Positions 2,428 to 7,275 of a stretch of 22,330 nt of DNA are shown piece by piece. The stretch spans positions 1 through 22,330 of the forward strand of contig CATMOE010000057.1 of the NCBI GenBank assembly GCA_950072105.1. The letters are read 5' to 3'. Each line of letters begins with the position of its first letter. Position 1 is the stretch's first letter. Position numbers and translations under genes: made by a program. The notes under the pieces are model-generated. The model worked only from the letters and a program-made list of their open reading frames with translations. It was not told where the DNA came from and made no database searches. The stretch comes from an uncultured Dehalococcoidia bacterium (GTDB lineage Bacteria > Chloroflexota > Dehalococcoidia > Lucifugimonadales > UBA3495).

Positions 2428-3000
2428 TTAGCCCTCAGGCTTGGCAGTGACATTGAGCGGGGCGCTGGCCCCTCCGTTCTTGCTCCCCAGAACGACTACC
2501 CCGTGCAGCCCCGGCTTCAGCGGGCCGCCTTCCCTCTCCCGTTTTCGAGGCCTGATTTCAACTTTGAAAGTCCCAGAGCTGTCGGCTACAGCACCGCCAA
2601 TGAAGACGTGGTAACCGTCCGGCCCGTACACCTCAACGGTCACGGCCTCTTCGTTTTGCCAGCCTGAGCCGATGACGTTTATTCTGGGACGTCCTTCTTC
2701 AACCTCGTTGGGGGATAACATTATCGCTGCGGGATATACGGAGCTGGGAGCCCCAGAAGCGCCGGTTGGACCGGGAGATCCTTGCTCGCCCTGGGGTCCA
2801 CGCGCCCCTTGAGAGCCTGCGGGGCCATCGACGCCGGGGAGGCCCGGTAGTCCGGGTTTACCGGCGCTGCCGGGATTTCCGGGTAGACCTGGGTCGCCGG
2901 GTACACCCTGAAAACCCGCCGCTCCGGCGCAAGCGACGAAAGCAAAGGTGACTATCGATATTAGTAGATAAACAGGGATCGCTCTAAGAACACGCTTCAT
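2428..3000 (-). CDS. Collagen-like (Gly-X-Y repeat) lipoprotein
   Basis: Basic N-terminus, hydrophobic stretch and FVAC lipobox-like Cys24, then 20 uninterrupted Gly-X-Y triplets (aa 26-85) and a beta-rich C-terminal domain. GAGGT SD upstream. Confidence 0.85.
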
Positions 3001-4740: not shown

Positions 4741-4837
4741 CCCGGCGAGCGCCCAGGTCAAGCCCAATTGTGATATCGTTCACCCTGTTGAAACACCGTT
4801 CCGTATCCTCGGATATCCGCCAATGGAAGGGTATGAG

Positions 4838-5221
4838 TTGAAAGAAGCCGGTTTGGTGATGCTGGGTGGCGCCAGTGGCGCGCTGACCCGTTATATGCTG
4901 CAACAACTTGCTCTGCGCATCGGTTTGACCGGCCAGATCGGTCTTCTGACGGTGAACGTATCTGGGAGCTTTGCGTTGGGGTTGTTGCTGTCATTCTGGT
5001 TGACCAGGACATCGTACCCAACCGGGTTGCAGCTCCTTCTCGCCGTGGGATTCATCAGCAGCTATACGACGTTCGCCACGTTGATGTGGGACAGCTTCCG
5101 GTTGGCGCAGAACGGCTCGGTGTTGATGGCCTTGCTGAATCTTTTCGGGAGTTTGGTGGCGGGTTTGGGCGCTGTGGCCTTGGGATTCCTGGCCGGACGG
5201 CTGATTGGGCAGGTCGCCTAG
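4838..5221 (+). CDS. crcB: Fluoride channel Fluc/CrcB family protein
   Basis: Four hydrophobic segments with GGASGALTRY, VNVSGSFALG and GFISSYTTF motifs. TTG 4838 is preceded by GGAAGGG; the in-frame ATG at 4823 is an alternative start. Confidence 0.9.
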   Translation: MKEAGLVMLGGASGALTRYMLQQLALRIGLTGQIGLLTVNVSGSFALGLLLSFWLTRTSYPTGLQLLLAVGFISSYTTFATLMWDSFRLAQNGSVLMALLNLFGSLVAGLGAVALGFLAGRLIGQVA

Positions 5222-5278: not shown

Positions 5279-5440
5279 TTACTTTCCGTGACACCTTTTG
5301 TATTTTCTGCCGCTGCCACAGGGACATCTCTCGTTGCGGCCGATTTTGCTGGGGTTTTGGGTGGCAAAGGTCCGCTTCTCCTGGCACTGGACGCAGGTGC
5401 AAGCTTGGGGATGTTCCGCGTACCAGTTGGGTCTTACCAT
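5279..5440 (-). CDS. 53-aa SEC-C motif mini-protein with an N-terminal H-x3-C-x-C-x2-C motif
   Basis: Translated by hand (below the ORF-track cutoff): [53 protein letters not shown]. Near-consensus SEC-C motif. AGGTGG SD before the ATG. Confidence 0.85.
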
Positions 5441-5510
5441 CTTCCACCTGATTGGATTCGGCGCGGCGGCAATCAGCCTTGGCCTGGAGTCTGGTTCAAA
5501 CGCTCGTTAC

Positions 5511-5540
5511 AAAAAAAGGGGCCCCAACTTCAGTTGAGGC
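5511..5540 (-). terminator. Terminator-like hairpin in the leader of the SEC-C mini-gene
   Basis: Minus strand GCCTCAAC-TGAA-GTTGGGGC (8 bp, one G-U) followed by CCC-TTTTTTT. Confidence 0.5.
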
Positions 5541-5549
5541 ATTAGAACT

Positions 5550-5579
5550 ATTGTAACATAACCAAAACAGGTTTGGCAA
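5550..5579 (-). promoter_or_regulatory. Sigma70-type promoter with extended -10, upstream of the SEC-C mini-gene
   Basis: Minus strand TTGCCA-N18-TACAAT, with TG-T directly before the -10. Confidence 0.6.
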
Positions 5580-5673: not shown

Positions 5674-7275
5674 ATGGATGATCTGCTGATTCGAGGCGGA
5701 GAGGTGATCGACGGCACCGGCGCGGCGGCTCGCCGGGCCGATTTGGCGGTCAGTGACGGACGGATCGTGACGATCGGGGATTGTGCCGGCCGGGAGGCTT
5801 TGAGGGTTATCGATGCATCGGGTCAGGTGGTGGCGCCGGGGTTCATCGATATTCACACCCACTCCGACTTCACCCTTCCCCTTAATCCCCAGGCGGAAAG
5901 TAAGATTCGGCAGGGGGTAACCACTGAAGTGGTAGGCAACTGTGGATATTCCACGGCGCCGGTATTGCCCGGCCAAGCTGACAAGCTAAAGGACTTCCTA
6001 GCCGCCGGAGCGCCCTGGCTGAGTTTCCGGGAGACCAGCTTCGCCGAATATATGGACACCTTCCCCCAAACGTCGGTGAACACCGTTATGCAAGTGGGCC
6101 ACGCCACGCTACGGTTGATGACGATGGGGATGGAAGATAGAGCTCCTACCGCCCAAGAATTGTCTAAGATGGAATCGCTCCTGGAAGAGGCGTTGGATGC
6201 GGGAGCGTTGGGGATGTCTTGCGGGCTGTTTACTGCTCCGGGAAACTACGCCGATTTTGACGAACTCGCCTCCCTAGCTCGAATTCTGAAACAACGGGGC
6301 GCCACCTACGCATCCCATATCAGGGACGAAGCGAATCACGTCCTCGAGGCCATAGACGAAGCTATATCCGTTGGCGAGACCACGGGTGTGCGGGTTCAGA
6401 TCGCCCACATAAAACTCTCCGGCTTGGATAACTGGGGCCGGACCGAGGAACTGCTGGGGCGCATCGGCGCGGCCAGAGGACGCGGAGTAGACGTTCATTG
6501 CGATCAATATCCCTACACTGCCGGGACCAACCCTCTGCGCAACCTGCTGCCTCTGTGGGTCCAGGCCGGCGGGATTGAGGCCATGCTGGAGCGGCTGGTG
6601 GACCCCCAAGCCATCGAGCGTATGAGGCAGGATATCCAGCGCGACGGACTAACCAATTTCGGCCGGGTAGCGTCTTGGGACGCCGTGCGCATCGCCATCT
6701 CTCCCAACCAGCCGGAGATTGCCGGCCGTACCATAGAGGAGGCCGCCTCGGAGCGTGAGTGTGACCCGCTCACGGCCGCTTGCGAAATTCTCGCGGCTGA
6801 CCAAGGACATACCCGGATCGTGGTTGCGTCCATGTCGGAAGATGACGTGCAGGAAATATTGCGCTCGCCGATGGTGATGATAGGGTCCGACGGCAATTCT
6901 CTGGCTATCCATGGAATTACCAGTCAAGGCAGGCCCCATCCCCGGTTCTACGGGACGTTCGCCCGGGTTTTGGGCCACTATGTCCGTGACCTTGGAATCC
7001 TCTCGCTGCCCCTGGCCATCCACAAGATGACGGGAGGATCGGCCGATGCTCTGAGGATGTACGACCGGGGAAAGTTACTGGAAGGGAACTGGGCTGACAT
7101 CACGGTGTTCGACCCGGCCCAAATCGGCGAAATGGCTTCCTACGACGATCCTCACCAGTACGCCAAGGGCATCTCCACGGTAATTGTTAACGGAAAAGTC
7201 GTCATTGAGGCTGGTGAGCATACCGGCGAACTTCCCGGCAAAGTCTTGCGCCGGGGTCTCAATGGCGTCGGTTAA
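5674..7275 (+). CDS. N-acyl-D-amino-acid deacylase (D-aminoacylase) family amidohydrolase
   Basis: VIDGTG, APGFIDIHTHSD, GVTTEVVGNCG, SHIRDE, AHIK, IGSDG, PHPRFYGTFARVLG. GGAGG SD. Confidence 0.92.
   Translation: MDDLLIRGGEVIDGTGAAARRADLAVSDGRIVTIGDCAGREALRVIDASGQVVAPGFIDIHTHSDFTLPLNPQAESKIRQGVTTEVVGNCGYSTAPVLPGQADKLKDFLAAGAPWLSFRETSFAEYMDTFPQTSVNTVMQVGHATLRLMTMGMEDRAPTAQELSKMESLLEEALDAGALGMSCGLFTAPGNYADFDELASLARILKQRGATYASHIRDEANHVLEAIDEAISVGETTGVRVQIAHIKLSGLDNWGRTEELLGRIGAARGRGVDVHCDQYPYTAGTNPLRNLLPLWVQAGGIEAMLERLVDPQAIERMRQDIQRDGLTNFGRVASWDAVRIAISPNQPEIAGRTIEEAASERECDPLTAACEILAADQGHTRIVVASMSEDDVQEILRSPMVMIGSDGNSLAIHGITSQGRPHPRFYGTFARVLGHYVRDLGILSLPLAIHKMTGGSADALRMYDRGKLLEGNWADITVFDPAQIGEMASYDDPHQYAKGISTVIVNGKVVIEAGEHTGELPGKVLRRGLNGVG

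Follow-up and report, generated by a model that had tools for sequence, protein, structure and literature searches.

SEC-C domains of the SecA type bind zinc or iron and dock on ribosomes and on SecB, and the C-terminus of SecA reportedly binds lipids as well. According to passages of PMC6620043, the SEC-C domain of SecA cosediments with ribosomes on its own, with relatively low affinity, many species lacking SecB retain it, and the SecA tail is proposed to unlock SecA upon ligand binding. The aromatic residue Tyr893 of this domain is conserved, and a conserved serine (Ser889) has been tied to iron preference (10.1101/613315, in part). YecA (AscA) binds ribosomes through its own SEC-C domain, and its authors called SEC-C domains an evolutionary toolkit (partial text of 10.1101/2020.07.21.215244). 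A section of a review puts the SEC-C proteins without an assigned function at a dozen or more, so another SEC-C fusion is unsurprising in itself (PMC8076867).

In this study, we describe a strongly conserved microprotein of 53 amino acids (aa) from marine SAR202 bacteria in which a SEC-C domain follows a second short motif, HxxxCxCxxC. The window is the whole stretch of DNA that was analysed (22,330 nucleotides), and the features of the gene within it are as follows.

5279..5440, minus strand: gene of the 53-aa microprotein (6.1 kDa, pI 9.6), from translation and conservation
5384..5434, minus strand: N-terminal module, residues 3-19 (R-x2-W-x3-H-P-x-A-C-T-C-x2-C), a predicted His-Cys3 metal knuckle matching no library family
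5348..5383, minus strand: linker, residues 20-31, variable in sequence and with three main lengths
5282..5347, minus strand: SEC-C (SecA-type metal-binding) domain, residues 32-53, CxCxSx6CH with an aromatic residue at 47
5444..5449, minus strand: Shine-Dalgarno-like AGGTGG, 3 nt before the ATG
5511..5540, minus strand: promoter-proximal, terminator-like 8-bp hairpin plus U7, kept in both genus mates
5550..5579, minus strand: sigma-70-type promoter, −35 TTGCCA, 18 nt, extended −10 TG-n-TACAAT

The microprotein shares with the SecA metal domain the CxCxSx6CH pattern, the aromatic residue and the basic surface, but that domain is joined to an ATPase, whereas here SEC-C is free-standing, with a separate secA and in genomes without SecB. 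YecA of E. coli likewise carries a C-terminal SEC-C as a docking tag on a separate protein; it differs in its large UPF0149 chaperone domain and in working with SecB, while the other half of the microprotein is a 17-residue knuckle. YchJ (UPF0225; PDB 9l6b) and the PBPRA1643 SWIM/SEC-C family (TIGR04102) are small and, as the microprotein, have a second metal motif besides a C-terminal SEC-C, but the N-terminal site of YchJ is a C4 SEC-C-like motif and a folded core is present. Membership in these families was rejected by score: 27.4 bits against 149 for YecA (about 220 aa), confined to the C-terminal stretch; 15 bits against a cut-off of 120 for YchJ, where only the SEC-C part aligns and which ends in CC instead of CH; and 26.9 bits against 68 for TIGR04102, over model positions 80-107 only. 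The JGI 'YecA' labels on relatives rest on SEC-C alone, with NCBIfam scores far under the cut-off, and the database labels 'YecA', 'YchJ' and 'SecA' on relatives are wrong. What is new is the N-terminal module and its architectures, the SEC-C half being an already known family.

A preliminary description of this locus had reported a minus-strand ORF with both motifs, and translation bears it out: HxxxCxCxxC occupies residues 10-19 and the SEC-C motif residues 34-51, leaving 14 residues between them instead of the approximately 13 given. Its ribosome-binding site and extended −10 promoter are also in place, the former lying only 3 nt from the start codon (AGGTG(G/A) or GGTGA was seen by eye at the same place in several relatives) and the latter matching the consensus at 10 of 12 positions, with the −10 box ending at 5550. 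This promoter is among three promoter-like sites observed between 4600 and 5800, with 0.5 expected. The ORF had been called hidden, which holds for the ORF track, where it is absent, but not for databases, since the exact sequence is in the ESM Atlas and NCBI names relatives 'SEC-C metal-binding domain-containing protein'.

The 53-aa ORF is a real gene under purifying selection. By itself, the HxxxCxCxxC motif is about as frequent as chance would give (a single occurrence, with 4 and 2 in the two 2.6-Mb shuffles) and occurs three times in the six frames of the 4.08-Mb genome, the other two in frames of 20 and 26 codons without SEC-C; therefore, the proof of the gene is its conservation and not the motif. 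A first homology search returned eight relatives, each exactly 53 aa long, and a profile search retrieved 165 proteins at E ≤ 1e-12. Among the best 120 of these 165, the median length was 54 aa and 117 carried both motifs, with the HxxxCxCxxC spacing present in the same number; the NCBI organism names among the matches listed were all Chloroflexi, Dehalococcoidia or SAR202. Selection was measured on 39 distinct intact genes, after removal of a duplicate and of a copy interrupted by a stop codon. pN was lower than pS in all 741 pairs, and the dN/dS check suggested in the preliminary description gave 0.052 and 0.057 against two genus mates. R3, W6, H10, P11, A13, C14, T15, C16 and C19 are invariant in 39/39 copies, so the conservation of the N-terminal motif is upheld; the same is true of the SEC-C ligands C39, C41, C50 and H51 and of S43, and position 47 is Y, F or W in all 39. 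In the 117 two-motif proteins the non-ligand residues R(−7), W(−4) and T(+5) never vary, and the terminal pair is CH, not CC, in 118/118 scored relatives.

The possibility that the gene is only the 3' remnant of a longer one does not stand. A start codon lies 8-13 codons ahead of the His, just before the motif, at 41 of the 42 loci examined, and in-frame stops follow shortly upstream (median 10 codons), which argues against a longer frame. An origin as a secA remnant or fragment was rejected on the closeness of these stops (within three codons in 12/41 copies), the dN/dS of about 0.05 and an intact secA with its own SEC-C tail on another contig. A second SecA_DEAD match (G000:C2:118509-119747, minus strand) lies in a 1086-codon frame where the SEC-C motif was not found by pattern.

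Taking match rows at E ≤ 1.1e-18, a full-length microprotein was present, apart from secA, in 36 of 60 related genomes (24/36 of the family and 12/24 from other families of the order), while 24/60 lacked the SEC-C form and 8/60 any detectable module. Two decayed copies were noticed (L030 in G042 and L129 in G019), one with an in-frame stop in the linker and the other a second copy without a nearby start and missing the last Cys. The absences and the two decayed copies indicate that the microprotein is dispensable. In the window it is flanked by a convergent crcB (4823-5221, plus strand) and a divergent amidohydrolase gene (5674-7275), so that it must be transcribed alone. In four metatranscriptome studies there are RNA contigs that overlap the gene, two of which cover it whole; they are a weak hint only, being strandless, spanning the convergent crcB as well and possibly representing DNA. 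Synteny across loci revealed no conserved neighbours beyond close kin, and no sec or ribosomal-protein genes were found among the nameable neighbours; in some genomes the gene sits within housekeeping runs, 9 nt after enolase and before GAPDH (L015, L021).

Judged by sequence, residues 32-53 are a member of the SEC-C family with every hallmark of the SecA metal domain. Pfam recognised SEC-C (PF02810) at residues 35-53 (E 6.7e-10, 39.1 bits against a cut-off of 20.4) and nothing in the N-terminal half, and the best PDB match of the SEC-C half had E 2e-10; PDB structures of the SecA metal domain are 1sx0, 1ozb and 1tm6. It is identical to the SecA tail of its own genome at 18/21 residues and 48/63 bases. 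A broader comparison of microprotein and SecA tails was set aside, the long set having been fetched with the microprotein's own pattern and thus being biased.

The preliminary description had recognised no named family in the N-terminal motif. This is sustained, since no match to it was found in Pfam, NCBIfam, PHROGs or PDB. The motif is not special to this peptide: the HxxxCxCxxC half is a portable module that recurs in many Dehalococcoidia proteins, nearly always N-terminal and mostly ahead of a membrane anchor. A profile built from 44 N-terminal segments, partly seeded with transmembrane (TM) and amphipathic members, hit 276 clusters (50% identity) at E ≤ 0.001 among 1.84 billion representatives. 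For these 44 members Pfam gave just four single-member matches (E 0.04-0.16) and PHROGs at most 3/44 (E ≥ 0.027), none of them credible; NCBIfam had no match to the microprotein's N-terminal segment, and the PDB none to the profile at E ≤ 10. No description of the family was found in the freely accessible article texts searched. The AlphaFold2 model of the microprotein was poor (mean pLDDT 54.8, pTM 0.26, a low-confidence helix at 20-28) and matched nothing with Foldseek, and no weight was put on either; ESM Atlas matches of the module were all under 0.9 and serve as leads only. The module was detected in 52/60 related genomes, 57/251 genomes of the class and 12/301 of the phylum, all 12 belonging to the same class, and it looks confined to Dehalococcoidia, although two matching long proteins of unknown origin (P0135, P0161) make a wider range possible.

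For 129 of the best 150 clusters (276 in all), the motif is confined to the first 25 residues. Tail classes, assigned there by a hydropathy and moment script, comprised 76 proteins with a downstream TM helix (70 of them with a basic linker), 17 with SEC-C, 19 with a C-terminal amphipathic helix and 38 unclassed, several of which look truncated or frameshifted. The amphipathic class represents 19/57 of the remaining tails, against 355/5700 shuffles. At 20 chosen class-level loci, same-sized siblings with the tail swapped were sorted by eye into ten SEC-C, five amphipathic, four TM and one other. AAW39208.1 exemplifies the TM version. Microproteins of approximately 45-60 aa made of the knuckle and a basic amphipathic helix were seen at L140, L143, L144, L146, L147, L115 and L118. 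The cultured Dehalococcoides mccartyi has a 67-aa knuckle-plus-TM protein, annotated as hypothetical and encoded downstream of a phosphoglycerate-mutase gene (L141:1472-1672 and L142:1418-1618, both minus strand, L145 and L150), and sister genomes have proteins resembling it. In one source it bears the apparently mistaken label 'cobalamin biosynthesis Mg chelatase CobN'.

We presume a likeness between half of the siblings and the zf-HC2 (PF13490) anti-sigma factors, in which an N-terminal cytoplasmic His/Cys motif precedes a TM helix and an outer domain, and we take the zf-HC2 spacing to be HxxxCxxC, which differs from that of the module. An identity as a zinc-binding anti-sigma factor was rejected, zf-HC2 having no match here though it matched two other genes of the genome; a check of 76 genes neighbouring module genes turned up no sigma factor. 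Other resemblances, in our estimation, link a 'DRDY' N-terminal variant with rhomboid N-termini, the amphipathic tails with the tail of MinD and the knuckle motif with plant VAL proteins. The HxxxCxCxxC ligand spacing is identical in the UHRF1 PHD region (PDB 3zvz) and in TRPC channels. In the portion of PMC7683545 consulted, the UHRF1 site with this spacing binds Zn, and the one in TRPC5 is a putative Zn site; it is from this precedent that we infer metal binding by the N-terminal His-Cys3 knuckle. Two metal sites in the microprotein are likely. Those eukaryotic sites are embedded in large domains without sequence match to the module and were treated as convergent.

These observations are best explained, we tentatively propose and at somewhat less than an even chance, if the single-copy, stand-alone microprotein with its two metal knuckles acts as a tether to ribosomes or to the anionic membrane. 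The His-Cys3 knuckle would fold with a Zn ion at its centre, and a conserved partner in the cytoplasm or at the membrane surface would be bound through the knuckle's invariant Arg and Trp. The C-terminal part would be an interchangeable address, either a TM helix, an amphipathic helix or SEC-C, and the last of these, where there is no SecB, would direct the knuckle, together with that partner, to ribosomes or to the anionic membrane near the Sec machinery. The swapping of SEC-C for TM or amphipathic helices in siblings of the same size points to the tail as the address and to the knuckle as the constant working part, and the placement of the module mostly ahead of membrane anchors suggests a tether or adaptor role. 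The microprotein would thus probably be a tiny connector rather than a metal store. The residues between the two ligand sets number just 17-26 across relatives, so the knuckles could pack as one unit, which counts against their working as separate hands. Also against the tether are the absence of conserved neighbours and, among the nameable ones, of sec or ribosomal-protein genes, the low ribosome affinity of the isolated SecA domain (as given in part of PMC6620043) and the dispensability of the gene. With at least 276 clusters, the module represents an uncatalogued family, putatively metal-binding, in a class that includes marine SAR202 and the dechlorinating Dehalococcoides, and the microprotein, which can readily be expressed, offers a minimal natural case in which to study the role of SecA-type metal domains where SecB is absent.

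A first alternative, which we consider unlikely, is a redox- or metal-switched nucleic-acid regulator like Salmonella YchJ, in which the knuckle would hold a structural Zn and SEC-C would bind DNA or RNA according to the state of its cysteines, perhaps at the palindrome near the gene's own promoter. YchJ has an N-terminal Zn site, and the lysines of its C-terminal SEC-C bind DNA after disulfide dimerisation (passages of PMC13377102); the microprotein family is also basic (median net charge +8, n=39), and an inverted repeat overlaps the likely transcription start. But the YchJ switch is a CC pair and this family ends in CH in every scored relative, most knuckle siblings are membrane-bound, and a search of 40 upstream regions found no family-wide inverted repeat or operator (best z 3.1 among many dyads). 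The promoter-proximal repeat itself, which the preliminary description does not mention, looks instead like an RNA hairpin with a U tract (U7, 5540-5511). Such terminator-like hairpins stand a few bases after the −10 box in the window (5511-5540, minus strand), L002, L006 and L024, and the four fold at z −2.3 to −3.9; in them no two-sided covariation was found, with pair counts equal to those of shuffles (four sequences, G010 being out of register). Both genus mates retain the promoter and the hairpin, differing only in the loop, and so does one genome of another genus. The hairpin, limited to a few lineages, may serve in attenuation, as a short RNA or as an operator. Its being a dispersed repeat was rejected, as only 4/25 loose genome matches had a T-rich tail and the clean T7 run occurs only here. 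A hairpin over the Shine-Dalgarno sequence, noticed by eye, was likewise discarded, since shuffled sequences fold as well as the leader (z +0.56) and genus mates do not preserve the arms. The whole window had no Rfam matches at the gathering score. By eye, the L024 leader has a second hairpin-T run further down, and L039 carries about six tandem copies of an 18-nt unit within 200 nt upstream of its start codon.

A metal sensor or buffer, as raised in the preliminary description, would be a small two-site store or gauge of Zn or Fe without a protein partner, and we regard it as improbable. In its favour, predicted ligands make up eight of the 53 residues, four Fur-family matches were found in the genome, and the invariant Ser corresponds to the residue of iron preference in SecA (10.1101/613315, partial text). 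It fits less well with invariant residues that are not ligands in both halves (R3, W6, P11, A13 and T15 in the first) and with a basic SEC-C surface that is fully kept. Two sites are few for a store, a common operator and, among named neighbours, metal-homeostasis genes are absent, and the gene lies in the housekeeping runs of L015 and L021.

Comparably improbable is a decoy or competitor for the partners of the SecA tail, also put forward in the preliminary description, in which free SEC-C would tune SecA autoinhibition or nascent-chain capture and the knuckle would set its stability or availability. The close identity to the genome's own intact SecA tail would suit it, as would the proposal that ligand binding to this tail unlocks SecA (PMC6620043, in part). 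Nevertheless, SecB, the classical partner, was found in 0/60 related genomes, the E. coli control being positive, which makes a SecB decoy unlikely. A free domain of low intrinsic affinity (same passages of PMC6620043) should moreover compete poorly with a tethered one, and a decoy would leave unexplained why 133 of the best 150 proteins have the knuckle but no SEC-C.

We give slightly less credence to the knuckle as a self-acting N-terminal tag (a degron, a metal-gated stability signal or a topology signal) that sets the level of the SEC-C peptide. The module does stand at the extreme N-terminus of otherwise unrelated proteins in 129 of the best 150, some of which carry large outer domains, such as the CAP domain in 10 of them, but many members are only 46-67 aa long, with little beyond the knuckle and an anchor and thus no cargo, and some have two to four copies of the motif.

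An unannotated sibling of 55-101 aa lies between nuoI and nuoJ in 15/15 fetched loci holding those genes (L123, L127, L165, L166, L168-L173, L178, L179, L182, L185 and L188; for example L172:1424-1693, plus strand). It has one or mostly two knuckles and often an amphipathic tail, and its first knuckle aligns with the microprotein family at 96.5% probability. This sibling may be an accessory subunit of complex I or a regulator of it, and its position could derive from one ancestral insertion. For the tether, it and the 67-aa protein of D. mccartyi provide two routes to the partner, the complex I operon sibling being found in 15 SAR202-family genomes. The nuoI-nuoJ spacer of the window genome lacks the sibling gene and any remnant of it (E 0.49), and by eye its nuo operon has no frames of NuoEFG size. 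Of 36 family genomes, 18 have the SEC-C form only, nine the nuo form only, six both and three neither (Fisher p 0.010, overstated since kin are not independent). In the reading to which we assign the lowest probability, the knuckle is a hitherto undescribed docking module, specific to Dehalococcoidia, that serves a single membrane machine, possibly complex I. Were it true, the different tails would deliver a shared docking surface to the membrane, to outer sensor domains or, in the microprotein, to ribosomes and SecA. The SEC-C form would then link the synthesis or export of proteins with the assembly or activity of the respiratory complex, and the partly complementary occurrence of the two forms would reflect overlapping roles.

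Some further observations concern the window itself. The fluoride-channel gene crcB at 4823-5221 (plus strand) has no Rfam fluoride riboswitch match, and it adjoins the microprotein gene in L011 too, in a different orientation. Between 12594 and 16695 (minus strand), AllG, CoA-ligase-like and AllH genes are consecutive, beside a CN hydrolase and a RidA-like gene; this cluster is of the oxamate carbamoyltransferase type, and we take its CoA-ligase-like gene to be FdrA/AllF. Finally, 2428-3000 (minus strand) encodes a protein of 190 aa that has collagen-like Gly-X-Y repeats, a hydrophobic N-terminus and a weak match to an Ig-like domain.
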